Source: a virus. Taken from it: DNA of 64,000 nucleotides. Both the position numbers and the translations under genes were made by a program. Of this stretch, positions 3,203 through 63,954 are shown one piece after another. Location of the stretch: positions 1,400 to 65,399 of IMG/VR virus record IMGVR_UViG_2858635475_000003. One strand, written 5' to 3'. Under the pieces are notes generated by a model, which searched no databases, was not told the DNA's origin, and saw only the letters and a program-made list of their open reading frames with translations. The stretch's first letter is position 1. Each line of letters begins with the position of its first letter.

Positions 3203-3224
3203 TGTTAACTCCACAAATGGTTGA

Positions 3225-3911
3225 TTATCCGAGAATGTCAGAAAAATCTAACTGGCTTGCGAGTTGGCTCGCGACATAACCACCCCATTGTTTTGCGATC
3301 GCCTTTGCATGGCCTGGATGTAACTTGGATCTAGCCATTCTACGAACTTCCGGATCGCTTGTCGGAGCATGTCGATGGACACTCTCTCTCGCTGTTTTTC
3401 CATCCAAAGTGCCGGTTCGCGTGAGCTTCGGCAAACCGCCTTCTGTCCACCAGCATGTCGCCTTCTTCTCGTTATCGGGACCATTTTCATCGTCACCGAA
3501 CCACCACGGTTGCACGGTCTGACATGGTAATTTTTCAACACCGCTCATGATCTGCGCATATCGCAACATCACGGGGTTTTCGTAAGCCACGTAACGTACA
3601 GGACAGCGTTCTCTCAGGTCATATAGATCCCATGCCGCTTGCCCCATTTTCACCCAACGGTCGATGTTCAGACCGCCCCGTTTATCCATTCCGTTGAAAA
3701 GGTGTTTTGAACTGGAATTTGCCATGAAAGTGCATGTTGGATGGAAAATTGCTAAATCCCAACCGTCGAACATCACGTCCCACCAGTTGCCCTGATAGTG
3801 TGGTCCCGGCACCTGCGTAGGAGACAGATCGCAGGACATCGCATCATAACCTTCGGCTATGAAGGCATCTCGTAACGTTCCCGAATATTCACCGCCGATT
3901 AAAACTCGCAT
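3225..3911 (-). CDS. putative DNA (cytosine-5) methyltransferase-like protein with C-terminal DFSDILG tail
   Basis: Start inferred at the internal Met (MRVLIGGEYSG, resembling C5-MTase motif I). PTCTF resembles motif IV (PCQ-F) and YENPV resembles motif VI (ENV). Ends ...QLDFSDILG*. Confidence 0.5.
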   Translation of the reverse strand: MRVLIGGEYSGTLRDAFIAEGYDAMSCDLSPTQVPGPHYQGNWWDVMFDGWDLAIFHPTCTFMANSSSKHLFNGMDKRGGLNIDRWVKMGQAAWDLYDLRERCPVRYVAYENPVMLRYAQIMSGVEKLPCQTVQPWWFGDDENGPDNEKKATCWWTEGGLPKLTRTGTLDGKTARESVHRHAPTSDPEVRRMARSKLHPGHAKAIAKQWGGYVASQLASQLDFSDILG

Positions 3912-3921
3912 AACACCATAT

Positions 3922-6039
3922 TCAACAATTTGTTGATTTTGTAAACGACGAAAGATAGAGATCGAGCGCTGTTTCCCGCTTTCCCCATCCCATGTTCCTG
4001 AGAATTTCGTAGGCTTCTTCGATGTAGCGCTCATGATCCACGTCCGCGGGCACAAACAGATCGTCCGGCAATGTCATGATTGGCCGGCAGCCGTCTGACC
4101 TCGAAACCTTGGCTCGGTTGCCGGTCTTGGCGTGCGGCTTGCCGCGCATGATCGGAGCACCGTCCTTCGCCCAATAGAACCGAACCGTTTTGCCGAGATA
4201 TTGACCGTTCCAGTCGCCGCCGCCCTTGGCCTTGATGACACGGACAAACCCGCGCACGTCAGGGTAATTCCGGATGAAATCCTCGATCGGAATGCCGTCA
4301 ACCAGAAATGCCAGGATCGCATCTCCGCACACCGTCATGTTCGGGTTCTTTTTCATTTGCTCGAACGACGGGCTGTATTCGGGAGAATCCTTCATCAGGA
4401 ATTTGCGCAAACCCTCGAGCTCGATCCCGGCCAGGAGCGGGTCGTCTTCCTTCAGTTTGTTCCGCCAGTGGTTCGCAATGTACCCCTTGCGCTTGGCCTT
4501 ACCATCGGGCTTGATCGCCAGGTAGAAGTTGACATCGCGGTTATAGATCGCCTTGTATTCAGCACCTTCGAGGATGAAACTTGTCGTGTTTTCCCACCAC
4601 TCGATAAGTTCTTTGAGGAAGCCGCCTGCCGGCCGGTCGCCCTTCATCCCTTCGTAAAGACGACGCGGTATCTTCATGACCACGCCGTCAGTGTTCGCCG
4701 AGACGATCCGGATACCGGCAAGTTCTGCGCGCTCGATCAGCATCAACAATGTTAGCTGACCGGTCAGCGTCGTAGCAATCATCAGGTGTGGAGCAAACAG
4801 AACGCTGTAACGGCTCCCGAGCTTGCCATATGGACCGTTCAGACCAACCTTTCGGCCATCCGACCGAACCTTGAAGAATAGTTCTTTCTCGCGGTCGCCG
4901 GCATCACGAGCGTCGTTCGAACGCTTCTTGTCTGCCATGCGCTCGGCTTTAATGCCGCCGTAGACAGGCTGGAATTTTGGGCCGACCGCTTTCGGGTAAA
5001 GGCCGAGCTTCAGGATGATAGAAGGGTACTGAGAGCCTACGTCGAAGTCGACAAGCTGCCAGTCGTCATCCGACTCCTCGACGCGGCATTTTTCCTGCGA
5101 ATGCAATCCGCCGATACCGAGCTTGTAGGTGGACTGCCCGATCTCGATCTTGAACTTTTTGAATTCGTCGGGGAACGGCACAGAGCCTGTGTCGGTGACC
5201 TCGATATCGGTCTCTCGAATGACCTTCAAAACGTTCTGTAGCAGCGGCGTTTTGAACTCTATGAAGTCGGGAACCTGGTATCGAAACTTGTAGCCGCCCT
5301 TGAACTTGGCTTTCTGAACCTGCTTTTTGATAAGACGCTCGACGCCGATCTTGATCATGCGCTCGCCCGTTTGCGCGTCAGACAGAGAGCGGGCATCGAT
5401 CCCGTAGATTTCGCCGATCGACTCGCGAAGTTCGAGCGCCTGTTTGCAATGTGAGTAAAGATTTGCGGTCGCGGGGCAGTCCGAATTTCGGCAATAGTCG
5501 TTCAGTACGTCCATCTCGTCGTGGGTGAGATCGGCATCGGGGTCTACGGGCAGGTCTTGGAGGCGCTTCGCGTGCAAGCGACCTGCAAGCGTCTTGAGGC
5601 TCGCACTACCAGAGGCGAAAACGTTCTCCTGCTCGTCGTCATCATCGGCACCGGTTCCAACGGAAGGGTTAGTGTCGAAAAGATCGATGTGATCCACGTA
5701 GGACGGAACGACGATCCCAAACTCGCGCTCGCAGTCCCACGGTTTTTTCCGCTTTTTGATAATCCAGTCAGAGAGTGCCTTCAGGTCCGCATTGCTCGCA
5801 CCGTTGAGCGCGTACAGCAGAACCATCATGTCGTAGTCCCGGCTATTGAAGCCGACCACAGTATACTTCTTGAGAATGCGCCTCACGCGCAGCGGATCGA
5901 AATCAGCGCGCTCGCTACGCTCGTAACCGATCGACCGGCCGTCCTCGGTCAGGAATGCTACATAGAAGTAATTCCGGTAGCATTCCAAGTCGAAGAAGGC
6001 GATCGGCCGCTCAGTTTTTGTCCTGACTTCTCTGGCCAT
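3922..6039 (-). CDS. DNA polymerase, family B-like, with 3'-5' exonuclease domain
   Basis: Exo I FFDLE near the N-terminus. Motif A-like DVGSQYPSIIL (cf. DxxSLYPSII) and motif C-like SANTDGV (cf. YGDTDS), in the canonical order. Confidence 0.75.
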   Translation of the reverse strand: MAREVRTKTERPIAFFDLECYRNYFYVAFLTEDGRSIGYERSERADFDPLRVRRILKKYTVVGFNSRDYDMMVLLYALNGASNADLKALSDWIIKKRKKPWDCEREFGIVVPSYVDHIDLFDTNPSVGTGADDDDEQENVFASGSASLKTLAGRLHAKRLQDLPVDPDADLTHDEMDVLNDYCRNSDCPATANLYSHCKQALELRESIGEIYGIDARSLSDAQTGERMIKIGVERLIKKQVQKAKFKGGYKFRYQVPDFIEFKTPLLQNVLKVIRETDIEVTDTGSVPFPDEFKKFKIEIGQSTYKLGIGGLHSQEKCRVEESDDDWQLVDFDVGSQYPSIILKLGLYPKAVGPKFQPVYGGIKAERMADKKRSNDARDAGDREKELFFKVRSDGRKVGLNGPYGKLGSRYSVLFAPHLMIATTLTGQLTLLMLIERAELAGIRIVSANTDGVVMKIPRRLYEGMKGDRPAGGFLKELIEWWENTTSFILEGAEYKAIYNRDVNFYLAIKPDGKAKRKGYIANHWRNKLKEDDPLLAGIELEGLRKFLMKDSPEYSPSFEQMKKNPNMTVCGDAILAFLVDGIPIEDFIRNYPDVRGFVRVIKAKGGGDWNGQYLGKTVRFYWAKDGAPIMRGKPHAKTGNRAKVSRSDGCRPIMTLPDDLFVPADVDHERYIEEAYEILRNMGWGKRETALDLYLSSFTKSTNC

Positions 6040-10290: not shown

Positions 10291-12747
10291 ATGCTCCATG
10301 AAATTGAACCATTTGCGCGAGCAGGTTTTGCGATCCACTGGCTGCACCCGAAATCCAAGCGGCCGATCGGCAACGATTGGGCTTCGAAGCCAGTAAAGAC
10401 GCTGGACCAACTGCGCAGCAGCTACGAGGCCGGCGTATCCGGTAAAAACGTTGGCGTGAGACTCGGCAAGTGGTCGAAGGTCGGTTCCGATTTCCTGCTC
10501 GTCATCGATGTCGACATCCGCAAGCCGGAACTGGCGAAAGAAGCCTTTGCAGAACTAAAGCGCCTGTTTCCGGAATACGCGACGTATCCATCCGTGATCT
10601 CGGGATCGGGCGGCGCGAGCCGGCATTTCTACATCCTGACATCTCGTGAGTTCCCGTCGAAGCAGTTGGCTCACTCTGCACACCAATCCCTCGTTTGGGA
10701 TGAGAAGCAGCAGAAGGACGTGAAAAAGTGGGATTGGGAGATCGAGCTTTTCGGCACCGGCAAACAGGTTGCCATGCCGCCATCGATCCACCCGATCACC
10801 GGCAAACCCTATGTTTGGGAGCGCCCGTTCGACCTGGACGACCTCGATCTTGGCTTGGGTCCGTTCGTTGATTCGGATTACGTTGCCTCGCTAATCGACT
10901 ATGACGAGGAACGCGAGAACGCACCGGTCAATCCTGATGCCATTGAACCGCTCGGACTGACACCGGATCAGGTGCGCGAGATGTTGTCGAAGATCCCGAA
11001 TGAGGATTTCGACTACGAGGAATGGCTGAACGTCATGGCCTCTGTCCAGCATGAAGCGCAGGGACACCCTCTCTCGATCCGCAAGCAATTCTACGAGGTG
11101 TTTCGCGAGTGGTCAGCGAAATCATCCAAGCACGACGACGAGACGACCAAGGCCAAATACAAGAGCTTCAAGAACAGCCCGAACCGCAGGCAGCGCACGA
11201 TGCGCTCCATTCAGGCGCAGGTCCGCGAGATCGAGCTTGACGAGCAAATGGACGACCTCGGCGATGAGATTGATGATCTCGGGCCCGAGGAAGATGAGGA
11301 CGACGACGGCGAATTCGATGACGTGCTCGGCGGCGACCCCGACAAGCCGTCGAAACGAGAAATCAGACTGCGCAAGGCCGAGGTCGAGCACGCCTTCGGC
11401 ATTGTCCCGAAGCGCATCCAGCGCCTGAACGCAAAGCACGCCGTCACGTTTTTGAGCGGCAAGTGCGTGATTATCACCGAAAATTCTGACGGAACCACCT
11501 CTTACGGCACCCCCGGTGAGCTTCATAATTGGTACGAGAATGATCGCGTGGCGAGTGAGAAGGCCACGCAGCCTGTGTCAAAAGCCTGGATGCAGCATAA
11601 GGGGCGGCGCCAGTACCCGAACGGTGTCGTGTTCTCTCCTGGCAAGGAGCGGGACGGTTACTTCAACCACTGGAAAGGGTTCGATGTGGAGCCCGACCCC
11701 AAGGGTTCATGTCAAATGTGGCTGGACCACCTGCGCGAGATCATCTGTAACGGCAATGAAACGCACTACCGCTATGCGCTCGGCTGGTTCGCCCACATGA
11801 TCCAGAAGCCTTGGGAGAAACCAGGTGTCGCCATGGTGCTCCGCGGCAAAAAGCGGATCGGTAAGGATACGATCGCCGACTACTTCGCCGGCCTGATCAA
11901 GCGGTATCACGTCACGGTAGCAAATCAGGACCAGATGGTCGGCAAGTTCAATGCCCATCAGGAACGGTGCCTGCTTCTCCACGTGCAAGAAGGTTTTTGG
12001 GCCGGTAATAAGCAGGCCGAGGGTTCGCTGAAATACCTGATCACGTCCACCTCGGTGCTGATCGAGCCCAAGAGCGTCAACGCCTTTACGGTCGACAGTT
12101 ACCTGCGCCTTTTCATCTCGTCGAACGAAGATTGGGTGGTGCCAGCCACCGCGGACGAAGGCCGGTATTTTGTTCTCGACGTTTCCGACAAGCGAAAAGA
12201 CGACCACAAGTATTTCGGCGCGATGAAGCGCGAGATGATGAATGGCGGTCTGGAAGCCCTGCTCCACTACCTACAGAATTACGATCTCAGCAAGTTCGAG
12301 GTCCGCAAGGTGCCGGATACCAACGCGCTGGCCGATCAGAAAATCCAAGGCTTGAAGAACCTCGACAAATGGTGGTTCTCGATGCTCGAATCCGGCGAGC
12401 CCGAATTTGAATTCCAGAACATCAAGGGTATCGTTGCCGACTGGAATACGGAATCGATCGTTGTCGACCGAGACGATTTTCGCAATGTCTATTCAGCCTG
12501 GATGCGACACCAGCGTTATGACGGCAGTGAGCTTGTGAAATTCATGATCGGCAAGCGTCTGCGCGAACTGTGCCCGCAGATCGAGGACAGGCGGCGCCGG
12601 GACGGCGCGAAGCAGATTTGGACCTACGTGATTCCGAGCCTGCCGCAGTGCCGAGCGGAGTTCAGTAAATTCATGAATTCCGAGATCAAGTGGGAGACCA
12701 CTGATGTGCCTGAGATTATTCTGGAAGACGATTTCGACGATTTATAA
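10291..12747 (+). CDS. bifunctional primase-polymerase / D5-P4-type helicase
   Basis: PrimPol motifs (LLVIDVDIRKPE; SGSGGASRHFYIL). C-terminal P-loop NTPase (MVLRGKKRIGKDT). Ends EDDFDDL*. Confidence 0.8.
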   Translation: MLHEIEPFARAGFAIHWLHPKSKRPIGNDWASKPVKTLDQLRSSYEAGVSGKNVGVRLGKWSKVGSDFLLVIDVDIRKPELAKEAFAELKRLFPEYATYPSVISGSGGASRHFYILTSREFPSKQLAHSAHQSLVWDEKQQKDVKKWDWEIELFGTGKQVAMPPSIHPITGKPYVWERPFDLDDLDLGLGPFVDSDYVASLIDYDEERENAPVNPDAIEPLGLTPDQVREMLSKIPNEDFDYEEWLNVMASVQHEAQGHPLSIRKQFYEVFREWSAKSSKHDDETTKAKYKSFKNSPNRRQRTMRSIQAQVREIELDEQMDDLGDEIDDLGPEEDEDDDGEFDDVLGGDPDKPSKREIRLRKAEVEHAFGIVPKRIQRLNAKHAVTFLSGKCVIITENSDGTTSYGTPGELHNWYENDRVASEKATQPVSKAWMQHKGRRQYPNGVVFSPGKERDGYFNHWKGFDVEPDPKGSCQMWLDHLREIICNGNETHYRYALGWFAHMIQKPWEKPGVAMVLRGKKRIGKDTIADYFAGLIKRYHVTVANQDQMVGKFNAHQERCLLLHVQEGFWAGNKQAEGSLKYLITSTSVLIEPKSVNAFTVDSYLRLFISSNEDWVVPATADEGRYFVLDVSDKRKDDHKYFGAMKREMMNGGLEALLHYLQNYDLSKFEVRKVPDTNALADQKIQGLKNLDKWWFSMLESGEPEFEFQNIKGIVADWNTESIVVDRDDFRNVYSAWMRHQRYDGSELVKFMIGKRLRELCPQIEDRRRRDGAKQIWTYVIPSLPQCRAEFSKFMNSEIKWETTDVPEIILEDDFDDL

Positions 12748-17138: not shown

Positions 17139-17696
17139 CTAAGCCCCAAGCACGTCCTCGAATTGAGCCATAGGGTTGGTGCGGCCATAAACTCTGAAAT
17201 TCACGTTACCGACCTTCCGTTCAAGACCGGTCGGCTGCCACCCGCCTTTTGTGAATGCCCGCTCAATCTTTCGGATTGGGCTCGCGTGCTCCCGCGACAA
17301 TCCGTTTGGGTCGACGCCAAAAAGGTTCTGCAAGACTGCCGCTGCGGTTATGGTGTGGCGCCGCGACTTTAGGAACTCGCGAACAAGCTTCTGATCCACA
17401 TTCCCAATGTCAAGCGGTTCTATGACCGATGCTTGATGGCCGGAAGGATAGTACATCCAATGTTGACGACCATCGATCCGTGCTCTGTCGCCACCCTTAA
17501 GCCATCCGCAATATGTCGACAGCACTATGCTCATTCGGTGCGCAACGTGCACGTCGTATTCGCTTGGGTCGCAACCAAGTGCTTCAACCCAAACCTGCTC
17601 GCAATAAGTTACGTCCTTGTCGCGCAGCCATTCTCGGATCTTATGAACCTGTTCGGATAGCTCCGACGTGTGATTAAGGGTCTTCATTTTTCTCAT
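17139..17696 (-). CDS. hypothetical protein ending QFEDVLGA
   Basis: 185 aa with no recognised domain. C-terminal F-E-D-V-L-G-A joins the recurrent tail-motif family. Lies next to the iteron region. Confidence 0.55.
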   Translation of the reverse strand: MRKMKTLNHTSELSEQVHKIREWLRDKDVTYCEQVWVEALGCDPSEYDVHVAHRMSIVLSTYCGWLKGGDRARIDGRQHWMYYPSGHQASVIEPLDIGNVDQKLVREFLKSRRHTITAAAVLQNLFGVDPNGLSREHASPIRKIERAFTKGGWQPTGLERKVGNVNFRVYGRTNPMAQFEDVLGA

Positions 17697-17784
17697 CTCG
17701 AACCTCTTTCGGTCAGGCAGTGAGATAAGTAAGGCAGAAATCCCGTGAAGTCAACTGTTTGTGGATTTTGGTTTGTTGAAAAGT

Positions 17785-18113
17785 CTCCTTATCTCACTTC
17801 CATGGTATCTTACACGTCCTTATCTCATTTTTTTCTCAGCAAGCTTCTGTAATTATTGAAGTTGTGACATTTTGAGATAGAGGAGATAAGGGAGATAAGG
17901 AGTTTTATTGCTCAGCAGAACAGACCGATTTTTTGCACACTTAGGTAGGTGCCTTTCCACTGGTTGGGTGGAGCATTCTTGTCGCCCTACACGGAAAACT
18001 CCTTATCTCATTTATCTACTCTATCTCAAAATGTCACTTATATAATAAAAACAATATGTTAAAAGAAAAAAAGTGAGATAAGGACGAGATAAGGAGGGGG
18101 TTTTGAGATAAGG
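17785..18113. repeat. AT-rich nested inverted iteron array, (T)GAGATAAGG / CCTTATCTC x >=11, plus 17-bp inverted repeat GTGACATTTTGAGATAG (17864-17880 / 18019-18035)
   Basis: Read directly. Copies point outward-inward symmetrically around a roughly 85-bp GC-richer core (17903-17985). Confidence 0.8.
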
Positions 18114-18293
18114 AGATTTTCGAAATCAGCGATTTTTTCCGAAAAACGGCAGTTTCGTAACGCTTAGAACCCTTCGGGCCAATTTCAGGGCCAAAATTTT
18201 TCCAAAAACTCTCGCAAGCCGGGGCTCGGCGCCCTCCGCACTGCGTTATTTCGATCGAGAGGGACCCGTAGCGCCTTGATAACGCTCATCTTT

Positions 18294-22375: not shown

Positions 22376-22555
22376 ATGACGAAAATTGAAAAGTGGGCTG
22401 CGCGTGTTTTTGATGACGCTAACCGCCTTCTAGCTGAAAAGATTTGTGTAGGTGAAGTGGTCGCACGAATTGAGGGAGATCGTCTGTTGAGACGGCAAAA
22501 TCCTAAGGCAAATGCGCGACTTTTCATTGCCCCAACAGGGGAATTTTTCGAATGA
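22376..22555 (+). CDS. hypothetical small protein
   Basis: GGGAG SD with an ATG at 22376. Confidence 0.35.
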   Translation: MTKIEKWAARVFDDANRLLAEKICVGEVVARIEGDRLLRRQNPKANARLFIAPTGEFFE

Positions 22556-23841
22556 CACACGCCATGCTCAACACAAAAACCGGAATCCCGCTCAATAAGG
22601 CAAACCGGCATGGCCTCATAACCGGCCAAACCGGAACCGGCAAAACCGTCTCACTGCAACGCCTCACTGAGCAATTCAGCAAGGCAGGCGTGCCAGTCTT
22701 TATCAGTGACGTGAAAGGCGACATTGCCGCTCTTTCGCGATCCTGCCCTACTCAGTTTCTTGACGTTTTCGGGCAAACCGGAAAGCCGCTCAAAGCGGCC
22801 ATTTCCGCCATGGGTGCGGACTTAATGGCGCGTGCCCTGGAATTGACGGATACACAATCCGGCGTGCTCGAAATAGCGTTTGCTTATGCCCGCGATAGCG
22901 GCGCACCGCTGGCCACGATTGCCGATCTGCGGCAATTGCTTTCTGCCATTTCTGAGGACTCGGATTATGTGAATCGGCAGTATGGCCAGATATCGAAAGC
23001 AAGCGTTGGCGTGATTATGCGCGCCCTGTTGCGCCTGGAAACACAAGGCGGCAACGCCTTTTTCGGCAATCCGCAATTCGACGTGGCGGCATTGCTGGAA
23101 ACGATAGAAGAAAAAGTGCAGTTGCCCAACTTCGCTAACGCATTTCACGGTCGTCCACGTTCGCCGGATATCACCTTAGTAACAGACCGACGCGGTCAAG
23201 TTTCCATCCTGCAGGCCGAACGCCTCATTAACTCGCCACGGGTTTACGCGGCCTTCCTGCTATGGCTTCTAACGGAGCTATGGGAACGCCTGCCGGAAAT
23301 AGGCGACATGGATAAGCCGCGACTCGTCATGTTCTTTGATGAGGCACACTTGCTTTTCAGTGAGATCAACCCTGCCCTGTTGCGGCGGATTGAGCAAACC
23401 GTGCGCCTCATCCGCTCCAAAGGCGTTGGCGTCTATTTCGTCACGCAATCCCCCGACGACGTGCCGCACGCCATTCGGGAACAACTGGCATTCCAGATTG
23501 TGCATGATCGTGCCTATCGTATCGGGCAAGCGCACGTTTCCGGTCTCACACAAGACGGCAGGCCGGTTAATCATGGCCTTGTTCAAATCGACTTGCCGGA
23601 ATGCCCGCTAGGCGCGTTGACGGACGACGAGAAACCCGCCGCGCCGGTCACAGTTGAACCCATGGCCGAAAAGCCGCAATGGGCGCGCATGGGCAAGCCA
23701 GAGATTGCGCTGTTACTTGTGATCCTGGTAGCAGGCGGGTTTGTGTCATATGGGCTTGTATGGGCATGGGCGGCCGGTACAATCGGCAAGCTTGCAGCAA
23801 TCGGTTTTGCCGTGGCAATCGCTGGTGTTTTGAGGGGGTGA
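22552..23841 (+). CDS. P-loop NTPase (HerA/FtsK/TraD- or Zot-like) with C-terminal double-TM anchor
   Basis: Walker A ITGQTGTGKT and Walker B LVMFFDEAH. C-terminal hydrophobic segments IALLLVILVAGGFVSYGLVWAWAAGTIGKLAAIGFAVAIAGVL. Confidence 0.65.
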   Translation: MTHAMLNTKTGIPLNKANRHGLITGQTGTGKTVSLQRLTEQFSKAGVPVFISDVKGDIAALSRSCPTQFLDVFGQTGKPLKAAISAMGADLMARALELTDTQSGVLEIAFAYARDSGAPLATIADLRQLLSAISEDSDYVNRQYGQISKASVGVIMRALLRLETQGGNAFFGNPQFDVAALLETIEEKVQLPNFANAFHGRPRSPDITLVTDRRGQVSILQAERLINSPRVYAAFLLWLLTELWERLPEIGDMDKPRLVMFFDEAHLLFSEINPALLRRIEQTVRLIRSKGVGVYFVTQSPDDVPHAIREQLAFQIVHDRAYRIGQAHVSGLTQDGRPVNHGLVQIDLPECPLGALTDDEKPAAPVTVEPMAEKPQWARMGKPEIALLLVILVAGGFVSYGLVWAWAAGTIGKLAAIGFAVAIAGVLRG

Positions 23842-24116: not shown

Positions 24117-24298
24117 TTATCAACGGACAAGTGAAACACCCTGCCAGCGATGGAACGTACCACGACTCATGGTTTGCCGCGTGGCGTCGGTCACTGTCAT
24201 ATAGCATTTTCATGGGAACCTATGACGGCAGGCCGGAGTCGTGCGGTTATGGCTGGAACAAGGAAACGGGAAAGCCGATGGATCGTCATAAGGAGTGA
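24113..24298 (+). CDS. hypothetical small protein
   Basis: ATGA-coupled. Confidence 0.4.
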   Translation: MIINGQVKHPASDGTYHDSWFAAWRRSLSYSIFMGTYDGRPESCGYGWNKETGKPMDRHKE

Positions 24299-24489
24299 TG
24301 AATATGGATGATGCATGGATTGAGGGCGCGAATGCTGCCTATGACGGTAAATCTCGCAGCGCTAACCCTTACAGTTCCGCTCATAGTTTTTCTAGAAAAG
24401 ACCTTTGGAATGAAGGCTGGCTTTATGCTGCAAAACGAATAGCGATTCGCAAAATTGAAAAAGAGCGTGGTATATCAGACGACACTTGA
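24295..24489 (+). CDS. hypothetical small protein
   Basis: Coupled ORF. Confidence 0.4.
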   Translation: MMNMDDAWIEGANAAYDGKSRSANPYSSAHSFSRKDLWNEGWLYAAKRIAIRKIEKERGISDDT

Positions 24490-24512
24490 CCGCCAATAAC
24501 CTGCAGCACAAT

Positions 24513-24540
24513 GGCCCGCCTTAGAGCGGGCTTTTTGTTG
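24513..24540 (+). terminator. rho-independent terminator GGCCCGC-cttaga-GCGGGC-TTTTTGTTG
   Basis: Stem, loop and U-tract read directly. Confidence 0.6.
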
Positions 24541-24845
24541 TCCGTAGACCTGATTTTTATCTGCCCACGGTACAGCCTTTTCGGTTCCGTTTTCAGCCGG
24601 AATCCCCATATCTGCAAAACCCGCCGTAGAAGGCCGCACAGCGCGATTCCCGCATTTGCGCCATAACCGGACTCGCAACCCGTGAAAGCGTTTTCTTGGT
24701 GTTGCCAGCGACAGATATGAGGGGATTTTGACAGGACGGAGCCCGCCGTTTTGGCCGAAAATCACGGTTCGAGAGCGACGGCAACCATTCCCGATCGACG
24801 ACGTGGAGGCTTTGCGACCAGGCGGCCGGCCCGATTTCCCGTTTT

Positions 24846-24894
24846 GACCCTAAATCTCCAAAATGATCCGCGACCCTAAAATTCCAAATAGATC
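24846..24894. repeat. two 24-bp direct repeats GACCCTAAA(T/A)(C/T)TCCAAA(A/T)(T/A)GATCC inside a 420-bp non-coding spacer
   Basis: Read directly. The spacer (24541-25114) contains no convincing ORF. Confidence 0.6.
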
Positions 24895-25026
24895 CACGGC
24901 TCGGAAAACTCAAACGCCCCGTGCCGGCGAAAACCGAAACGAGGCGTTCTGAGGGGTCATGGTGATAGGAGGCGGGGACCTGCCTTCCGAGACACGAGCA
25001 ACATACCAGAAACCGGATCGAGCGCA

Positions 25027-25077
25027 ACAACTGTTTGTGGATTTTCGCATTGACTTTATCAACAAAATGTTGATTAT
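25027..25077 (+). promoter_or_regulatory. tandem pair of dyad motifs (CAACtgtttGTGGATttt ; ATCAACaaaatGTTGATtat) upstream of the BRCT gene
   Basis: Representative of the motif family found at more than 30 gene starts. Confidence 0.5.
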
Positions 25078-25114
25078 CGGATTAAAGATTGAACGCGAGC
25101 CCGAGGAGTCGGCG

Positions 25115-26467
25115 ATGAGTGAGTTGGGAATTTACGAGGGGTGTTACGTCCATCTCCGGAAGGGTGACGTGGTCGGGCCCCTTACGAAGGATGAAAACGC
25201 AGACCCTCTATACCAGTGGAGGGGCCCAAACGGTTTGTCCTGGTCGTCATCCGGCAAAGTTCTGCTTTCGGAATACGAGTTCCCGAATGACATCGTCCGC
25301 GTGATGCCGAAAGACGCAATCAAGTTGACGATGTCCAAGACATACGGCGACTTCTCCAAGCTCGGCGACTTCTCCAAGCTCGGCCAAGCCACCATCCCGC
25401 CCCACGTCACCAAGGCCGCAATGGACGCCGGCATCAAGGCCGACCCTGCCTACGAGCATTTCGTGAATGCGATACTGACGGCTGGCTTCAAGGCGCAGTA
25501 TGAGATCGAGTTCGTGCCGGTGGGTGAGATTATAGAACTCGCAAAGAACCTCATTGACGCCATTGATATGGAGCCGAGAGAGGCGTGGGGTTGCCGCAAC
25601 GTCGAGAGACCGAAATGGGAACGTCAAGTTTACGGGCCTGCGATCCGTGCGCTGAAATCGGCGTTTGAAAAAATTCCCAAAAACGAATCTGAAAAAAGGA
25701 TTCCGGATTCCGAAAAACCCAAAGGGGGTCTGAGCGGTCTACCACTCGAAGGCGTGACCATCTGCTTCACCGGCAGCATGAACATGCCCGTCGATACGCA
25801 CAAAGGGATTGCGGAAGCTCTCGGTGCCAAGGTTTCCGGCAGCGTCCATTCGAACACCACGCTGGTCGTCTTCGGAGCGGGCGCTCAATCGAAGCTCGAC
25901 AAGGCTATTGCGCATGATCTTCCCCGGATGAGCGAGAAAGCCTGGTTGTGGCTCGCCGGTCTGCTCGGATACGGCAAGCCGGAACATGTGAGCCCATACG
26001 GGAAGATCGGCGCACCCATTTCCAGGGCCGGCGAGAAGGTGCTTTTCGAAGTCCTGAAGCAGCGGTCGCGGGCAGATATCCCATCGGTGCAGACGATCGA
26101 CGAAGCTATCAGAGCAGCAGTTCGGGAATGGCGTGATAATAACCCCGTGGCCGTGATTCCACCGTCCCATTACATCGCCAAGAAGGTCCATGCGGCGATG
26201 GCGTGTGCATCCGGCGAGGATGTCGTCCATCTCGTGGCGCCGGAAGGTTGGTATCTCCACGAGTGCAAGCACGAGCACACCCCGCACCGGTTTGCAGGAC
26301 AGACGGTGGCCCCCTCAGACCATCCCGGTGGCGCGTGGTCCGTCGATTTCCAGCGCATTCAAAATGGTGGGATGCTAACTGGTGGCCGTGGAAAGACTCT
26401 TGTCGAAGCCTGGCAGAACGCGGTGGCGGCAATCAAACTCGCTGAAGAACACGGGCTTGACATTTAA
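25115..26467 (+). CDS. BRCT domain-containing protein with GDFSKL tandem repeat
   Basis: BRCT-like block GVTICFTGSMNMP...LVVFGAGAQSKLDKA. An 18-bp exact tandem duplication (25346-25381) encodes GDFSKLGDFSKLG. Confidence 0.6.
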   Translation: MSELGIYEGCYVHLRKGDVVGPLTKDENADPLYQWRGPNGLSWSSSGKVLLSEYEFPNDIVRVMPKDAIKLTMSKTYGDFSKLGDFSKLGQATIPPHVTKAAMDAGIKADPAYEHFVNAILTAGFKAQYEIEFVPVGEIIELAKNLIDAIDMEPREAWGCRNVERPKWERQVYGPAIRALKSAFEKIPKNESEKRIPDSEKPKGGLSGLPLEGVTICFTGSMNMPVDTHKGIAEALGAKVSGSVHSNTTLVVFGAGAQSKLDKAIAHDLPRMSEKAWLWLAGLLGYGKPEHVSPYGKIGAPISRAGEKVLFEVLKQRSRADIPSVQTIDEAIRAAVREWRDNNPVAVIPPSHYIAKKVHAAMACASGEDVVHLVAPEGWYLHECKHEHTPHRFAGQTVAPSDHPGGAWSVDFQRIQNGGMLTGGRGKTLVEAWQNAVAAIKLAEEHGLDI

Positions 26468-26488
26468 ATCAACAAAAGAGTGATTTCC

Positions 26489-26812
26489 ATGTCGAGACTG
26501 TGCCCGCACTGCCAGAGACCGCTCAATTCGAGCCTTCCGATGGAAGTGATCAACGAGCTAGATGCGCTCGAATTGCAGAGAAAGCAGCGTGCCGTGCTCG
26601 ATGCACTGGTCTCATCGTATCCGCGCTTTGTCACCGCAGCCGATCTGGAACAGTGGATGTGGGACGACGTGGGTGAGGCCATTCCAAAGAGTGATACTGC
26701 GATCTCATCGCATGTCTCGAAGCTGAGGAAAACGCTTCAGAAGCTCGGCTTTGGGATCGAGGCAAAACGGTTTGTCGGTTTGCGGCTGACCATAAAGTCA
26801 ACCAAGAGGTGA
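26489..26812 (+). CDS. zinc-ribbon + OmpR/PhoB-type winged-helix DNA-binding protein
   Basis: CPHCQRP zinc ribbon, then a trans_reg_C-like fold (RKQRAVLDALVSSYPRFVTAADLEQWMWDD...HVSKLRKTLQKLGFGIEAKRFVGLRL). Confidence 0.6.
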   Translation: MSRLCPHCQRPLNSSLPMEVINELDALELQRKQRAVLDALVSSYPRFVTAADLEQWMWDDVGEAIPKSDTAISSHVSKLRKTLQKLGFGIEAKRFVGLRLTIKSTKR

Positions 26813-28127: not shown

Positions 28128-28466
28128 TCAGTCCCGAGCCAATTTCCCGATGATCCAGTTGTTGTTCCCTTTGTTGCCGCACTTCATGCATCGCAGTTTC
28201 TGCCGCAGGTGAGTGAGATAAATGCCCGATCCGAAGCGCCGCATTAGGTCATTGCGGTCGAGCCACCCTTCCCGTTCGCAACGTGAACACCGCCCGCCGA
28301 ACACGTACCACTCGGGATAGGAATCGAGAGTTGGATAGAGGTCGCGGCTGACCGTCCCTTCGTAGATGACGCGAAAGGAATCCGGAACAAGGTTTATGCT
28401 GCGGCGGTGTTTCATGTTCTTATTTTGTTCGCAAGGCCAGTAAAGAGTCAAGACAGTCCGCTCCAT
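28128..28466 (-). CDS. Cys-rich zinc-ribbon protein on the opposite strand (moron candidate)
   Basis: CSRCEREG and CMKCGNKG pairs. Lower GC than its neighbours. Antisense to the surrounding cluster. Confidence 0.45.
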   Translation of the reverse strand: MERTVLTLYWPCEQNKNMKHRRSINLVPDSFRVIYEGTVSRDLYPTLDSYPEWYVFGGRCSRCEREGWLDRNDLMRRFGSGIYLTHLRQKLRCMKCGNKGNNNWIIGKLARD

Positions 28467-28519
28467 CTTGACAATATCCACAAATAGTTGATTATCGAAA
28501 TCGAAGGTAAGGAAGAAAC

Positions 28520-29137
28520 ATGGGTACGCAGAACCGCATCAAATGGGATGATCGAAGTGTTGCCACGGCGAGCAGCCTGTGGGCCAGCGGCAAGTCCGTC
28601 ACCGATCTCGCGAGGCATTTCGATGTCAGCCGCAGCACCATCTCAGGCATGATCCTGCGCAACCGGGAAAAGTTCGAGAACCGGTCACGGGCTCCGGTTC
28701 AGCGAATTGAATGGAGCGAGCAGAGCATCGACAAGGCGGTTGCTCTCTGGAAGGAAGGCCGATCGGTCCGCGAGATTGCGGAAAACCTCAACGTTCCGAC
28801 CAGCCAGGCGAACGCCGTGATCTATCGCAACTATCGTGATCGGTTTCCGGTTAGATCGGGGAGCCGCAAACCGCCAAAGCCGGTCGGAGCGCCTGAGGTC
28901 GCCACGTCGTTCGTAAGCACCCAGGCGTCCGAGCGCTACGACTTCACGCAATACCAGATCGAGGGCACGGAACCGGTGCCATACTGGAAGCTCTCAGGCA
29001 GTCAGTGCCATTTTCCCCTCGAACGCTTTGAGGCTGTCAGCGGTCCCGAGACGCCGTGTTGCGGCCAGGGCAATCTCGAAGGGCGGTCCTACTGTAACAC
29101 CCACTGGAAGCTGATGCATGAGGTGAAGGTGCGATGA
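28520..29137 (+). CDS. GcrA-like cell-cycle regulator homologue with duplicated N-terminal DNA-binding domain
   Basis: Two GcrA-N-like repeats (W-DDRSV..LW.SGKSVTDLA..FDVSR.TI.G ; WSEQSI..ALWKEGRSVREIA..LNVP). C-terminal FCG/PYC-x-TH-like block (CCGQGNLEGRSYCNTHWKL). Confidence 0.7.
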   Translation: MGTQNRIKWDDRSVATASSLWASGKSVTDLARHFDVSRSTISGMILRNREKFENRSRAPVQRIEWSEQSIDKAVALWKEGRSVREIAENLNVPTSQANAVIYRNYRDRFPVRSGSRKPPKPVGAPEVATSFVSTQASERYDFTQYQIEGTEPVPYWKLSGSQCHFPLERFEAVSGPETPCCGQGNLEGRSYCNTHWKLMHEVKVR

Positions 29138-37956: not shown

Positions 37957-39555
37957 ATGACGACAATCACCCTGCACCCCGGCGATAACATTCTTTCAAT
38001 GAGAGGGATGGCGGAAAACAGCGTGCATAGCGTGGTGACAGACCCGCCGTATATGCTCACAAGCATCGTCAAGCGCTTTGGAAAAGAAGGTTCTGCGCCA
38101 GCCAAGACTTCTGGTAATGACGGTTCTTTTGCACGCCTTTCGGCTGGTTTCATGAACAAACAGTGGGACTCTCCAAGAGTGGAATTGCCGCCATTGAGTT
38201 CTGACTTCGGTCATTACATGGCAGGCTTGATTGACGGGGAAGGATGTTTTCATGTGCATCGGAAACTGGTAAACAACTGTGAGACCTACGACTGCCAATT
38301 TTCAATAACCCTCCGCTCTGATGACAAAGACATTCTCGTGGAGATGCAGCGCCAACTCGGCGGCATAGGCTCCTTGGCTCATCGGCCAGCGCGTGACAAC
38401 GCCAATAGCCAAGCGCGCTTCTGCATTAGCTCGAAAGCACATTGTCAGGTTCTACGGGCGGCTCTAAGCGTATTTCCATTGCGCGCAAAAAAGGCTCGTG
38501 ACTTTGAGATTTGGTGTCATGCACTTGATGCATGGGTCAATCACGAACCGAAATCCTCATGGGAAGACGTGTCTTTCTATCGTGACCAATTGATGATGGT
38601 GAAGCGTTTCGGAAGCCTCTATAAGCCCGAATTCCTTTTCCACTATCGTTGGGCCAAAGAAGCTTTCAGAGTTCTAAAACCAGGCGGCTGCATATTCGCC
38701 TTCTCCGGATCTCGCACTGGCCACTGGCAGGCAGCCGCCATGGAACTTGCAGGTTTTATCATGCATCCTATGCACGGTTGGTGTTTTGGATCTGGAATGC
38801 CGAAGCCTACCAATTTAAAAGGCGTTCCCGGTTACGAGGGGTGGGGTTATGGCACGCAAACACAGAAGCCTGCTCTGGAACCCATATACCTCGGTCAGAA
38901 GCCTTTCAGCGAAAAGACAGGTCCACTTAATGTTTTGAAGCACGGCGTGGGCGGTTTCAATCTTGAGGATTGTTCTGTCCCAAGTGCCAAGGGTGACCCC
39001 CGCCGACCCGCCAATCTGATCCTCGACGGCTCGCCGGAAGTGGTTGCGATGTTCCCTGACTCCAAAGGGCAGCAAGGCGCTGTGCGCGGCGATGAGCCTA
39101 GCGGTGTCACGAAGGATATCTACGGCAAGTTCAATGGCCGCGTTCCAGCGCCAGTCCGTGGTGACAGCGGTTCCGCAGCACGGTTCTTCCACCAGTTCGG
39201 ACCTGACGCCGACCCGCTGATCTATCACGGTAAAGCCGGCAAAACGGATCGCGCTGGCGGCAATCATCCCACGGTCAAGCCGATCGCCCTCATGAAGTAT
39301 CTCATCCGGCACATCACGCCACCTGGCGGCATTGTGCTCGACCCGTTCGCCGGCAGCGGCACCACAGGCGAAGCGGCGAAGCGTGAGGGCATGGACTGCA
39401 TTCTCATGGAAGCCGAGCCCGAATACATCGAATTTCTGGAAAAGCGGTTCGACATCGCAAAACCGGAGTTCGATTTCGACGACATCCTCGGCGAAGCTTT
39501 GCCGATCAAATCAACAAATAGTGGAGATACGTTTCATGACATTCTCGGTGCTTGA
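37957..39555 (+). CDS. beta-class (CcrM-type, DPPY) N6-adenine/N4-cytosine DNA methyltransferase with embedded LAGLIDADG domain and double DxxDILG tail
   Basis: Motif IV VVTDPPYML near the N-terminus and motif I LDPFAGSGTT near the C-terminus (beta order). Between them lies YMAGLIDGEGCF (LAGLIDADG). The C-terminus reads DFDDILGEALPIKSTNSGDTFHDILGA*. Confidence 0.8.
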   Translation: MTTITLHPGDNILSMRGMAENSVHSVVTDPPYMLTSIVKRFGKEGSAPAKTSGNDGSFARLSAGFMNKQWDSPRVELPPLSSDFGHYMAGLIDGEGCFHVHRKLVNNCETYDCQFSITLRSDDKDILVEMQRQLGGIGSLAHRPARDNANSQARFCISSKAHCQVLRAALSVFPLRAKKARDFEIWCHALDAWVNHEPKSSWEDVSFYRDQLMMVKRFGSLYKPEFLFHYRWAKEAFRVLKPGGCIFAFSGSRTGHWQAAAMELAGFIMHPMHGWCFGSGMPKPTNLKGVPGYEGWGYGTQTQKPALEPIYLGQKPFSEKTGPLNVLKHGVGGFNLEDCSVPSAKGDPRRPANLILDGSPEVVAMFPDSKGQQGAVRGDEPSGVTKDIYGKFNGRVPAPVRGDSGSAARFFHQFGPDADPLIYHGKAGKTDRAGGNHPTVKPIALMKYLIRHITPPGGIVLDPFAGSGTTGEAAKREGMDCILMEAEPEYIEFLEKRFDIAKPEFDFDDILGEALPIKSTNSGDTFHDILGA

Positions 39556-60812: not shown

Positions 60813-62147
60813 TTAAGCGGCAGCGGCGTCCCGCGGTCCTTTGGTCAGACCGAGTACCCGTTCGTGACGCGGAACTTCAGCCTGTTCGCCTTCACCAGGA
60901 ACGCCGACATCGGCCTTCTTGGTCTCGTCCATGGCTTCCTTGAAGTTCTTGCCGGTGGCATTGGTCTTCGTGTCAGCCGCAGCGGCTTTTTCTTCCGGCA
61001 TGTCCGCCAGCATCTCGGTGACCGTTTCAGCATCGAGCGATGCGAACTTGTCGCCGGTTGCCATCTTGAGGGCGATTACGGGGCGCTTCTTGCCTTCCTC
61101 GGAATTGACGATCGCCGAGATGCGAGCGCGTTCCGCGGTAGCACCTTCCTTGGCGCCCTCGATCTTGCCAACCTTCACACCTTCAGCGTGGCCTTCGGCG
61201 CGAGCGGTATCAACAGCAGCCTGATCGACTGCCGCGTCATTTTTCGTCTGTCCAGACATGGTTTCGTCTCCTTCATCTGAGGACAGTTCTGCCGCAAATG
61301 CGGCGACGGAGTCGTCAAGCGTACCGATCGCATCGGCCAGCCCGTTCGACGTTGCTTGCGAGGCAGTGAATGTGAGGGCTTCGGTGTCCCGAACAGCCTT
61401 TTCATCCATGCCTCTATTCCGCGCCACGGTGGACACGAAAACTGCGCCAAGCTCATCGATGCGAGCCTGGATGCGTTCTTTGACTTCGGGTTTCAGCGCC
61501 TCATAGGGATTGCCATCGACCTTGTGGGCGCCGAAGTGAATGAAGGTGACCTTGTAGCCGCGCTGCTCCATGGCGGCCGAGATATCGATGTGCGCCGTGA
61601 CCACGCCGATCGAGCCCACGCCGCCAGTGCGCGAGACCGTGATGGAGTCTGCGACGGACGCGATCGAATAGGCTGCTGAATAGGCGCTCTCCATCGCGTA
61701 AGCACGAACCGGCTTCGTCCCGCGAGCCGCGAACATCTTGTCCACGAGATCGAAGTTGCCGGCGACCTCGCCACCGGGGGAGTCGATGATCAGCGCAATG
61801 CCGCGGACACTGCCGTCCTCCAAGCCGCGTTCGAACGCCTTTTGGATATAAGCGTAGCCGGTTGCCCAAGATCCGAAAGCATAAGGGAAGTCGTGCAGAA
61901 GCACGCCTTTGACCGGGATCATCAGCACGCCGTCTTTGACGACATACGGTCGCAGCATCGAGCGGAACGAACCAGGCTCACCCCACCAGTTCTCGTCGAC
62001 AGACGCCATCTCGGCCTTGAATTCCGCCGAGTTCATCTGCGCGGCAACCTGATGCAGCGAGGCTTCGAAGATACCCTGCATTTCCGGTGCGACGATGGAA
62101 GGCTTCTGATCGAAACGGGCGAGAAGCGGGTTCATGTTATTCGGCAT
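60813..62147 (-). CDS. prohead protease (S49/SppA-ClpP fold) fused to scaffold-like C-terminal domain
   Basis: S49 peptidase core (IALIIDSPGGEVAG...SAAYSIASVAD...). Ala/Glu-rich C-terminal region. Start at the ATG 5 nt before the portal stop. Confidence 0.75.
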   Translation of the reverse strand: MPNNMNPLLARFDQKPSIVAPEMQGIFEASLHQVAAQMNSAEFKAEMASVDENWWGEPGSFRSMLRPYVVKDGVLMIPVKGVLLHDFPYAFGSWATGYAYIQKAFERGLEDGSVRGIALIIDSPGGEVAGNFDLVDKMFAARGTKPVRAYAMESAYSAAYSIASVADSITVSRTGGVGSIGVVTAHIDISAAMEQRGYKVTFIHFGAHKVDGNPYEALKPEVKERIQARIDELGAVFVSTVARNRGMDEKAVRDTEALTFTASQATSNGLADAIGTLDDSVAAFAAELSSDEGDETMSGQTKNDAAVDQAAVDTARAEGHAEGVKVGKIEGAKEGATAERARISAIVNSEEGKKRPVIALKMATGDKFASLDAETVTEMLADMPEEKAAAADTKTNATGKNFKEAMDETKKADVGVPGEGEQAEVPRHERVLGLTKGPRDAAAA

Positions 62148-63954
62148 CGCGGCCTCGCTTGTCTGGATCTGGATGAACGGCATCCATGAAGTCGTTCGCG
62201 AGCGTTCCATTCTCGCTGCCAAGGATGTCTGAGAAATCGTGCTTCGCGGCTTCGCTGACGTTCTTTTCACCGGAAGCGGCGTTTACGGTGTTGTCCTGCA
62301 CATCATCGATGTAGGTGAGATCGTAGTGTTCGAACTCTTTCTTCTCACGTGCGACCTGACGCAATTCGCGGCGCCAGTCGCTACCGTGGATGCGGGCAAG
62401 CTCGCGCTCGTAGGTTGAGAGCTTGTGCTTGATGAGAAGAACGGAGGACTGAGTTTCCTTGAGCGGATCAATCTGACCACGGGCCGCGCCGATCCACTCG
62501 CAAGCCGTGATCGCTTCCATGGCGAGCGGCGCGTAAAGCCATGCGCTGTCAGCACCCATGCGCTTCGGCAGAGACTTGATGACGCCCTTGTTGATCGCTT
62601 CTTCAAGCCACAGGCGGTAGACGATGTTGGCGAACCGATCGGCGACAACCTTTTTGCGGCCGACCATGAACTTCCAAGTCTCGGTCATCGCAGCGCGGGC
62701 CGAAGAATAGTTCGTCTCGGTGTAATCCTTCGAAAGCTGTTCGTAGGATACGCCGAGCAGCGCTGCGATGTTGCGCAGAATGGATTGCTCGAACTCCATG
62801 CCAAGCGGCGCACCCTGACCGGGAGACTGCATCTTGAGTTTGGAGCCGAGCGGCAGTGCCGGAATACGGACGCCGTTGAGCTTCAACTGATCTGCGGCAG
62901 CCATAAAGTCCGACATGACCTCAAGGTGCTGGCCGAGACCCTGCTTGATCGCCGTGTCGGCATCTGTATCAGACGCCATCAGGCGAGCGAAGATATCCTG
63001 CGCAGGCAGATCGGATTCCACGACAGCGGCATATGTCGCCTGAACCACGGCGTTCTGAAGCGCCACGTCGCGGAACTGGCGAGCCATGTGCGTTTCGCGA
63101 ATGCCGGCAGCCATGTCGGACATGCCTCGGGTCTGGTTCGGACGCATCTGCTCGAACAAATGGATGAACTGAGGACGACCCCACCAGAGTTTCGCCGGCA
63201 GGCGCTCCCACTGATAGGCTTGCGCCAAATAGACATCGCGAGGATTCGCCTTGCGAATATGGTAGTGGGTCGGAACGTGATCCTGATTGACCTCAACACC
63301 GCCAATGATGAAAGCGTTCGAGAGCTTGTCCATCGGGGTGGAGAGCCGATCCACGTCGATCATTCGGATTGAGGTGCTGAACGGGCGATCGGATTTTGAA
63401 GACCGGTCCCAATCGACAGCGGCAAGCACTTCACCGCACATCAGGTAGGTGCCGACAGCCTGGCGAACCAACATCGTGAAGGAGTTGCGTCGGGTGGAGT
63501 CGATGTAATTCGCATCGGACTCAGCCCAAAGGCCGAACTTTTCTTCGACTTCTTCCTGAAACTCTTCTTCCCACTTCTCGTCAAGCTTGCCCATCAGCAC
63601 TTGGCTGTTCGGCTTGGCGTTCAGAAGGAACTGGCTGCCAACGATGTTGTCCTGATGAAGGCGCTGGCCGTTCTGCGCGTAGGCGTCGTTCTGCAGGATG
63701 TTGCGAATACGAGCGTCGGAAAGGCGTTTCGCGGGCAGGATGTCCTGATCGGCGGTGCGGTTTCCCGGCTGCCAGAGCGCCAGTTCACGCGAAAACCGGC
63801 TTGCGCCCTCGTAGGCTTCGCCCGCAATGGCTGTTTCTTTACCCGCGCCTGACGCCACCCTGATAACGTCAGGCGCGGGAGTGCTCGAAACACCTTGGGA
63901 GGAGTCAGGACCGAGCACATCTGTGAAATCTTTTGAAGATGCCATCAAAACCAT
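62137..63954 (-). CDS. portal protein (lambda gpB-like) carrying two copies of the DF[ST]D[IV]LG motif
   Basis: 605 aa upstream of the S49 protease, the lambda B-C order. KDFTDVLG at residues 8-15 and HDFSDILG 27 residues before the C-terminus. Confidence 0.7.
   Translation of the reverse strand: MVLMASSKDFTDVLGPDSSQGVSSTPAPDVIRVASGAGKETAIAGEAYEGASRFSRELALWQPGNRTADQDILPAKRLSDARIRNILQNDAYAQNGQRLHQDNIVGSQFLLNAKPNSQVLMGKLDEKWEEEFQEEVEEKFGLWAESDANYIDSTRRNSFTMLVRQAVGTYLMCGEVLAAVDWDRSSKSDRPFSTSIRMIDVDRLSTPMDKLSNAFIIGGVEVNQDHVPTHYHIRKANPRDVYLAQAYQWERLPAKLWWGRPQFIHLFEQMRPNQTRGMSDMAAGIRETHMARQFRDVALQNAVVQATYAAVVESDLPAQDIFARLMASDTDADTAIKQGLGQHLEVMSDFMAAADQLKLNGVRIPALPLGSKLKMQSPGQGAPLGMEFEQSILRNIAALLGVSYEQLSKDYTETNYSSARAAMTETWKFMVGRKKVVADRFANIVYRLWLEEAINKGVIKSLPKRMGADSAWLYAPLAMEAITACEWIGAARGQIDPLKETQSSVLLIKHKLSTYERELARIHGSDWRRELRQVAREKKEFEHYDLTYIDDVQDNTVNAASGEKNVSEAAKHDFSDILGSENGTLANDFMDAVHPDPDKRGRDAE

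Follow-up and report, generated by a model that had tools for sequence, protein, structure and literature searches.

The 64,000-nt window analysed here (the whole stretch of DNA, a rhizobial phage genome whose gene content was read from domain searches) carries a spacer at 24541–25114, directly ahead of a plus-strand gene for a protein with a BRCT domain (25115–26467). This stretch comprises two units rather than one: a distal part that corresponds to a variable cargo slot, left empty in this phage, and a proximal part of ∼330 bp (24790–25114) that is a conserved non-coding block in every relative. Judging from its sequence, the proximal block is probably a bidirectional transcription control region with a candidate leftward promoter, PL, facing away from the promoter of the BRCT-family gene, PR. 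For the locus as a whole we favour, on balance, an explanation that combines the empty slot, the bidirectional block, a short leftward RNA, a mosaic gene and a duplication by replication slippage. Phage control regions, short terminated RNAs, moron slots and slippage duplications are known kinds of element, of which this is a new instance.

About 25 homologues of the BRCT protein were found, all in Agrobacterium or Rhizobium genomes or metagenomes, with a top identity of 56–57%. The locus of one of them lies as a prophage in an Agrobacterium tumefaciens chromosome, which indicates that the homologue group is temperate. A distant relative is the isolated Sinorhizobium phage RHph_X2_30 of the family Casjensviridae (our locus L017; Rhizobium phage RHph_X2_30, MW980061.1, 5487–6290). 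We compared the spacer across 12 related phage or prophage loci, 11 of Agrobacterium type plus RHph_X2_30, referred to by L numbers where they need to be told apart.

Gene order around the spacer is conserved: a HerA-like gene, one or two small open reading frames (ORFs), a terminator, the variable slot and the non-coding block are followed by the BRCT-family gene, usually an OmpR-type winged-helix gene and, a few genes on, a GcrA-like gene. RHph_X2_30 has a comparable layout, with a gap of ∼800 bp without ORFs after its DUF853 gene. Within this gap lie a terminator, two repeats that end in GATCC, then a hairpin, TTGCGG, and a TTGACT accompanied by a TCAAC-N5-GTTGA palindrome; the gap is followed by a 294-amino-acid homologue of the N-terminal part of the protein, 39% identical and without BRCT.

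The control block and its predicted leftward RNA

The features of the proximal block are as follows.

24790–24845: left part of the control block (CGATCGACGA box, GGCCGGCC...CCCGATTT), conserved in 10 aligned loci including divergent clades
24846–24895, plus strand: two imperfect 24-bp direct repeats with a period of 26 (Tandem Repeats Finder, TRF: 83% matches, score 72)
24901–24948, minus strand: intrinsic terminator, hairpin 24913–24948 and U-tract 24901–24912, ΔG −22.6
24904–24993, minus strand: predicted small RNA of ∼90 nt, its 5′ end inferred from the −10 box and its 3′ end from the U-tract
25000–25027, minus strand: candidate promoter PL, −35 TTGCGC (25022–25027), 16-nt spacer, extended −10 TGGTATGTT (25000–25008)
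25028–25041, minus strand: copy of a phage-wide motif, TCMACAAANNGTTG, abutting the PL −35 and inverted relative to the PR copy
25050–25077, plus strand: promoter PR of the BRCT-family gene from the promoter scan, TTGACT, 16 nt, GATTAT
25059–25072, plus strand: motif copy TCAACAAAATGTTGA, between the PR hexamers

The block exists as two alleles plus more divergent versions. By the sigma-70 definition used (−35 and −10 hexamers at a spacing of 16–18 nt with at least 9/12 consensus matches), PR is a promoter with 9/12 matches; a 29-mer covering it is near-invariant in all relatives, and a promoter of the same type also precedes the GcrA-like gene, at 28467–28496 here and likewise in relatives. 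PR would drive the BRCT-family gene and the genes downstream of it.

The two dyad motifs that the initial annotation had noticed in the spacer are two copies of a single phage-wide motif, one between the PR hexamers and one against the PL −35. Its core is the palindrome TCAAC-N5-GTTGA, and its extended form is TCMACAAANNGTTG(AyTAT). Allowing at most one mismatch to TCMACAAANNGTTG, we counted 28 distinct sites in the window against 0.6 expected (for example at 3210, 9759, 12749, 17752, 18460, 19097, 20595, 22063, 25028, 25059, 28477, 31009, 34375, 50268, and 59125). Most of them (24/28) lie in intergenic gaps or at gene edges, 4–45 nt from start codons, and both orientations occur even inside single operons. 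The motif is abundant in the relatives too, where the back-to-back pair is kept. Its sequence and placement make it most likely the binding site of one dimeric regulator acting on many transcription units. Since many start regions including PR bear the palindrome, PR is probably under this common regulator, and the inverted copy beside the −35 of PL hints that PR and PL are controlled reciprocally.

On the opposite strand, TTGCG and TGGTATG show little or no variation among 11 loci, unlike the spacer that separates them; we infer PL from this conservation and not from the promoter scan. About 45–55 nt downstream lies the minus-strand terminator, which as read from the sequences is the best-supported new feature of the locus: a GC-rich hairpin followed immediately by a U-tract on the transcribed strand, with the RNA reading AACGCCUCGUUUCGGUUUUCGCCGGCACGGGGCGUU and then UGAGUUUUCC. 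A minus-strand hairpin with a U-tract is present in 11/11 Agrobacterium-type loci (ΔG −18.5 to −29.7) and covaries, being built from seven distinct stem sequences, and none of the 11 has a plus-strand hairpin with a U-tract at −18 or better. As background, 2.7% of random 200-nt windows reach −18. An independent scanner also flags the minus-strand terminator in L002, L005, and L011.

Together, PL and the minus-strand terminator predict a minus-strand RNA of ∼90 nt, which the spacer probably makes; PL would produce it and transcription would halt at the terminator. The minus strand of this region folds at −41.4 kcal/mol (z = −3.7, with 0/200 shuffles as good) vs z = −2.0 for the plus strand. RNAalifold on a MAFFT alignment was uninformative, the clade hairpins being out of register, and we used per-sequence folding with a background control instead. 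The initial annotation had seen in the spacer a possible small-RNA gene or regulatory hub, and had proposed an Rfam and structure search. This idea held in so far as the block is conserved and carries a promoter, motif copies and a minus-strand terminator that implies a short RNA, but the RNA would lie on the other strand and the features are other than those pointed to. Likewise, the proposed search returned no Rfam family, while the minus strand of 24904–24993 did fold beyond shuffled sequences.

The 24-bp direct repeats reported in the same annotation are present, as GACCCTAAATCTCCAAAATGATCC (24846–24869) and GACCCTAAAATTCCAAATAGATCC (24872–24895), against a chance expectation of 0 in shuffles. 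The pair occurs in every clade with the core RAAAWnRATCC, at a spacing that ranges from 26 bp (the window and L014) to about 33 bp (L013 and L016). It lies just beyond the minus-strand terminator, outside the predicted RNA, and the repeats are probably protein-binding sites. A likeness of the repeats to the intragenic linker DNA described below was not above window background.

Several observations weigh against this account of the block. PL (TTGCGC-16-TATGTT, with an upstream TG) reaches 8/12 matches to the sigma-70 consensus, too few for the scanner to call it; RHph_X2_30 has the hairpin but a weak U-tract; and the 5′ body of the predicted RNA differs between clades. Rfam 15, searched at permissive E-values with both strands of 24300–25300, gave at best 15 bits within the spacer vs a gathering score of 75, and the remaining sub-threshold matches overlap only the upstream terminator. 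A crude duplex scan of the predicted RNA against all start regions of the window found no trans target, with a best non-self value of −39 kcal/mol vs −43 ± 3 for shuffled sequences. We could tie no protein to either the motif or the 24-bp repeats; for the latter, a connection with the adjacent OmpR-type winged helix-turn-helix gene was considered and rejected, as L002 is without that gene and keeps identical repeats.

The same anatomy could be read as the start of a longer leftward unit, with PL serving leftward cargo genes, the hairpin acting as an attenuator or a terminator under regulation, and the short RNA being no more than a terminated leader, in the manner of the 6S RNA of lambda pR′-tR′. 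We regard this as possible and rather unlikely. Same-strand leftward ORFs do lie directly past the terminator and repeats in 7/11 Agrobacterium-type loci, and in the stretch from the repeats to these ORFs the scanner called no consensus promoter. However, the window, L012, and L014 keep the promoter, the terminator and the repeats though no cargo gene lies beyond them, the terminators are strong over the whole ΔG range given above, and no antiterminator was identified. In the reading we favour, the minus-strand terminator would keep leftward transcription out of the slot.

A replication origin is a considerably more doubtful explanation. The 24-bp repeats would then be iterons, TTATCAACA and TGTGGATTT would be DnaA-box-like, and the short leftward RNA would activate or prime replication. 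Direct repeats beside a short predicted transcript fit such a scheme, and the motif core ATC[CA]ACA presumably resembles the DnaA box TTATCCACA. Yet the DnaA-like sequence belongs to the motif that is present 28 times genome-wide, there are only two repeats, and the 26 to about 33 bp between them varies among relatives; an iteron-type origin would have at least three phased iterons beside an AT-rich unwinding region and an initiator gene, and the Prim-Pol/D5-like gene is 12 kb distant. We rate this reading low mainly because a far better iteron field exists at 17.7–18.1 kb, with eight exact copies of GAGATAAGG at 17787–18113.

That field occupies an AT-rich gap (17700–18130) between a leftward ORF (17139–17696) and the rightward early genes. 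The GAGATAAGG copies occur there in both orientations, with a ninth copy carrying one mismatch at 17722, plus another copy of AACTGTTTGTGGATTTT. From its sequence, the gap is a candidate origin or immunity region.

Extent of the spacer and the variable slot

The spacer had been described as a 420-bp, ORF-free stretch. It measures 574 bp, and mechanically it holds two ORFs, a 145-amino-acid minus-strand ORF (24593–25030) and an in-frame upstream extension of the BRCT gene by 52 codons from ATG 24959, neither of which is coding by comparison. We give next to no credence to a protein-coding spacer, whether as a 502-amino-acid form of the BRCT gene or as the minus-strand ORF: both ORFs exist in the sequence and gene callers lengthened several homologues upstream (P0001, P0003–P0006, and P0023), but in L012 a stop interrupts the extension and type-B loci have lost 1 nt from it, while the DNA stays highly conserved, the minus-strand ORF is split in L012, neither has a Pfam match, and a good ribosome-binding site precedes ATG 25115. 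Because the upstream extension is broken in these relatives, we place the start of the BRCT gene at ATG 25115.

The distal unit and its left boundary are listed below, together with examples of what occupies the slot in relatives.

24513–24541, plus strand: intrinsic terminator that closes the upstream HerA-like (DUF853) operon and bounds the slot on its left, stem GGCCCGC/GCGGGCT then TTTTTGTTG
24542–24789: distal spacer, the empty state of the variable cargo slot, non-coding in this phage
Slot genes in relatives, all minus strand: L002, 7408–7734; L005, 7243–7653; L011, 1929–3334; L016, 2028–2354

The left-hand terminator is also found in L002, L005, and L011, at 90–98% identity across relatives. 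Beyond it, the number of leftward ORFs in the slot varies, with none in the window or in L012, one in L002, L004, L005, L009, and L016, and three in L011. Read by eye from the translations, these ORFs mostly start with signal-peptide or lipobox-like N-termini (e.g. MNRILMMVAVGLLAGCQSG); one is Rha-like. Such sequences suggest that the slot genes of the relatives are likely lysogenic-conversion or exclusion genes, that is, cargo of the kind called “morons”.

In the window itself, the distal spacer from 24601 is 91% identical to the equally empty slot of L012 and about 66% identical to L014, with non-triplet indels, and no ORF is preserved in L012. It has no Pfam match, no Rfam match and no excess RNA folding (z = −1.3 and −0.5). 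The inward-facing terminators at 24513 (plus strand) and 24901–24948 (minus strand) would insulate the slot from phage transcription on both sides, which fits a build-up of autonomous cargo genes there.

Just upstream of the spacer, a 64-amino-acid plus-strand ORF (24295–24489) has a match to ribosome modulation factor that stays below threshold (PF04957, E = 4.8e-5, 23.8 bits vs a cutoff of 27.9), and a weak match to a CrpP-related family too.

The BRCT-family gene and other features of the window

The gene downstream of PR contains the following elements.

25115–26467, plus strand: gene for a 450-amino-acid mosaic protein, ATG 25115, ribosome-binding site GAGGAG at 25103–25108
25346–25381, plus strand: tandem duplication encoding GDFSKL twice, with GGC microhomology flanks (TRF 25345–25384, period 18, 2.2 copies, 100%)
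25676–25736, plus strand: 61-bp AT-rich linker element encoding PKNESEKRIPDSEKPKGGLS, with three GANTC sites at 25685, 25699, and 25706
25739–25985, plus strand: single BRCT module of LigA/RFC1 type, about residues 209–290

The protein consists, in order, of an N-terminal beta domain, an IPPHV helical block, a linker, the BRCT, a further helical block and a C-terminal alpha/beta module. Family-wide parts are the N-terminal beta domain (predicted local distance difference test, pLDDT, 81–92), the ATIPPHV...FKAQY block, the NESENRIPDSEKPKGGLS linker and the helical IPS...W block. The family is rare: among 1.84 billion representative proteins, clustering at 50% identity leaves it with 33 clusters.

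The BRCT domain named in the initial annotation was recovered by Pfam (PF00533, residues 209–273, E = 6e-8, 33.3 bits vs a cutoff of 21.3), and it occurs in 17/25 family members, the other eight being without it. Its closest matches are the LigA C-terminal region in NCBIfam (E = 4.8e-12), LigA structures in the PDB (1l7b, E = 4e-12; 1dgs; 2owo) and RFC1 (7tfh and 2k6g). In the AlphaFold model it has strands at 215–219 and 250–253 and helices at 226–235, 261–266, and 274–283, with a pLDDT of about 51–78; Foldseek with the whole model gave no significant BRCT match. Two closer assignments were considered and rejected. A tandem phosphopeptide-reader pair of the BRCA1/TopBP1 type, in which two adjacent repeats form the pSer-x-x-Phe pocket, does not agree with a single BRCT stretch and a PTCB-BRCT score of 20.0 bits vs a cutoff of 22. 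For LigA itself, whose BRCT is preceded by adenylation, OB-fold, Zn-finger and HhH domains, only the last ∼75 positions of the model align, at 45 bits vs a cutoff of 369, and no other Pfam domain is present. We propose that the gene product is a mosaic early protein with an optional BRCT, which by analogy with LigA and RFC1 would most plausibly act as a tether, either to nicks or ends in DNA or to proteins of replication and repair.

The linker between the N-terminal parts and the BRCT stands out at the nucleotide level. Across eight loci spanning the family, 6.6% of same-amino-acid codon pairs differ in the linker, compared with 32% and 47% in the two best-conserved coding blocks; the pairs are non-independent, and the effect size here outweighs the p-value. 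Amino-acid changes in the linker exceed synonymous ones, its GC content is 0.41 vs 0.57 in the gene, and its nucleotide conservation spans phages whose proteins are only 40–50% identical. One or two copies occur per gene, always at module junctions and with differing modules after them, and the linker is the sole site in the 64 kb with three GANTC within 40 bp. Searches for the linker outside the BRCT-gene family found none, including a search of plasmids with the 61-mer.

The simplest reading is a recombination joint homogenised by exchange. More tentatively, the linker could be a functional DNA or RNA element that is also translated, either a methylation-sensed site of CcrM/GcrA type or a recombination joint that drives module shuffling. 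If so, the linker, the leftward RNA and the 28-copy motif would place the locus in a control circuit that spans the phage and is new for rhizobial phages. The item that could surprise specialists is a nucleotide-conserved, GANTC-rich coding stretch in a phage with its own GcrA-like regulator and methyltransferase.

Across the window, GANTC, the CcrM-type methylation site, is depleted (129 observed vs 243 ± 15 in shuffles), and this GANTC-depleted phage encodes a GcrA-like protein and an N6/N4 DNA methyltransferase. In the methyltransferase gene, a LAGLIDADG domain sits ahead of or inside the methylase region, which may reflect the fusion or insertion of a homing endonuclease.

The exact 18-bp tandem duplication reported in the initial annotation is real: GGCGACTTCTCCAAGCTC occurs at 25346–25363 and again at 25364–25381, followed by a partial GGC, and the whole encodes GDFSKLGDFSKL. 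The same annotation had asked whether the duplication is polymorphic among relatives. It is absent in 22/22 relatives covering the region and so is particular to this genome; GDF[ST]K[LF] occurs once in 8/22, with unrelated sequence in the rest. Where a relative has the single copy, a GGC stands on either side of the unit (GGC...GGC), as slippage at a microhomology would require. The peptide lies at residues 78–89 of 450, in a segment of low confidence (pLDDT 32–40). The repeat appears to be a one-off, a recent replication slippage between GGC microhomologies in a disordered linker, private to this genome.

It had also been suggested that proteins with a DFSDILG tail have the BRCT protein as their hub or decoy, the duplicated GDFSKL being a functional mimic. 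We consider this extremely improbable: DFSDILG does occur three times in the window, and GDFSKLG has D-F-S and L-G in common with it, but the duplication is private to one genome, the peptide recurs in only eight of the 22 relatives and sits internally in a disordered linker rather than being a conserved peptide at or near the C-terminus, and the BRCT is single, LigA/RFC1-like and missing from 8/25 members. Nothing was found that connects DFSDILG to the BRCT gene, and we attach no special weight to the duplication or to the hub idea.

The DFSDILG sites themselves are at 40042 (plus strand), 3248 (minus strand), and 62238 (minus strand). Two of them form the extreme C-terminus of ORFs, a plus-strand ORF ending near 40065 and a minus-strand ORF at 3225–4055, and the third lies 27 residues before the end of the portal protein.

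Other genes identified in the window are listed here.

10291–12747: Prim-Pol/D5-like primase
22552–23841: HerA-like DUF853 ATPase
26480–26812: winged helix-turn-helix protein (OmpR type)
28520–29137: GcrA-like protein
37957–39555, plus strand: DNA methyltransferase (PF01555; N6/N4) with a LAGLIDADG endonuclease domain at residues 88–189
62137–63954, minus strand: lambda-type portal
Also encoded in the window: RtcB and tail proteins

Divergent from the promoter of the GcrA-like gene is a leftward gene (28128–28481, minus strand) for a protein of 108–117 amino acids with CxxC...CxxC motifs, 84–91% identical in relatives. A scan of the window for tRNA and tmRNA genes found none. Scans of a genome collection returned no confirmed relative with the BRCT protein and no exact match with a PR 30-mer, and in searches of plasmid and phage DNA the HerA-like gene was the sole match. 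The literature yielded nothing on BRCT in Agrobacterium prophages and nothing on RHph_X2_30.

Relation to known phage control regions and mosaic genes

If the anatomy holds, it provides a testable map of early transcription in the poorly studied phages of Agrobacterium, Rhizobium, and Sinorhizobium, comprising a palindromic site present 28 times, a bidirectional promoter region, a small leftward RNA and an insulated slot for lysogenic-conversion genes. Such a map would serve in annotating and engineering these prophages; it touches no long-standing open question.

The arrangement recalls the lambda PRM/PR switch with its operator OR. Here too the promoters stand back to back, about 20–30 bp apart, and the palindrome copies are placed so that a bound dimer would block PR, between its −35 and −10, and touch the PL −35. 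In contrast to lambda, where the leftward product is a repressor gene and the sites form a local operator triplet, the leftward product here would be a short terminated RNA and the site occurs 28 times genome-wide.

In its distribution the motif is closer to the stoperators of cluster A mycobacteriophages, repressor sites “distributed across the phage genome” (PMC9283540). As in those phages, dozens of copies of one short site are spread over small intergenic gaps, in the early as well as the late regions, and an early promoter is overlapped by one of them. The candidate operator resembles a distributed site, with many copies in short gaps, but not an asymmetric, oriented one: the motif is palindromic and without orientation bias to transcription, whereas stoperators are asymmetric, and the host and phage lineage are unrelated.

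The predicted RNA has its counterparts in lambda oop, P22 sar and the lambda 6S RNA from pR′-tR′, which likewise consist of a promoter followed by a strong intrinsic terminator within about 90 nt in a phage regulatory region. Unlike these, it overlaps no opposite-strand gene and is therefore not an obvious antisense RNA, and it has a clade-variable 5′ body, no Rfam match and no predicted target. The slot resembles morons, or lysogenic-conversion cassettes, in being flanked by inward-facing terminators on both sides and, in relatives, in holding one to three small genes of opposite orientation for exported proteins or lipoproteins; it differs in that the slot of the window is empty, with the frame alone present.

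The protein shares with the C-terminal BRCT of LigA and the BRCT of RFC1 a single domain in which the T-G dipeptide and SKLxKA are visible, but it is without ligase, adenylation, OB or clamp-loader domains, and its BRCT, which is dispensable in the family, sits in a mosaic protein that is otherwise of unknown type. Finally, the lambda origin resides in the linker-coding part of gene O, and the linker described here can be set beside it and beside the joints of mosaic phage genes: all are short DNA segments at module junctions, with sharp conservation boundaries and different flanking modules. The joint in the BRCT-family gene is distinguished from them by being intracoding, AT-rich and built of rare codons, with near-zero synonymous change across deep divergence and a unique GANTC cluster.

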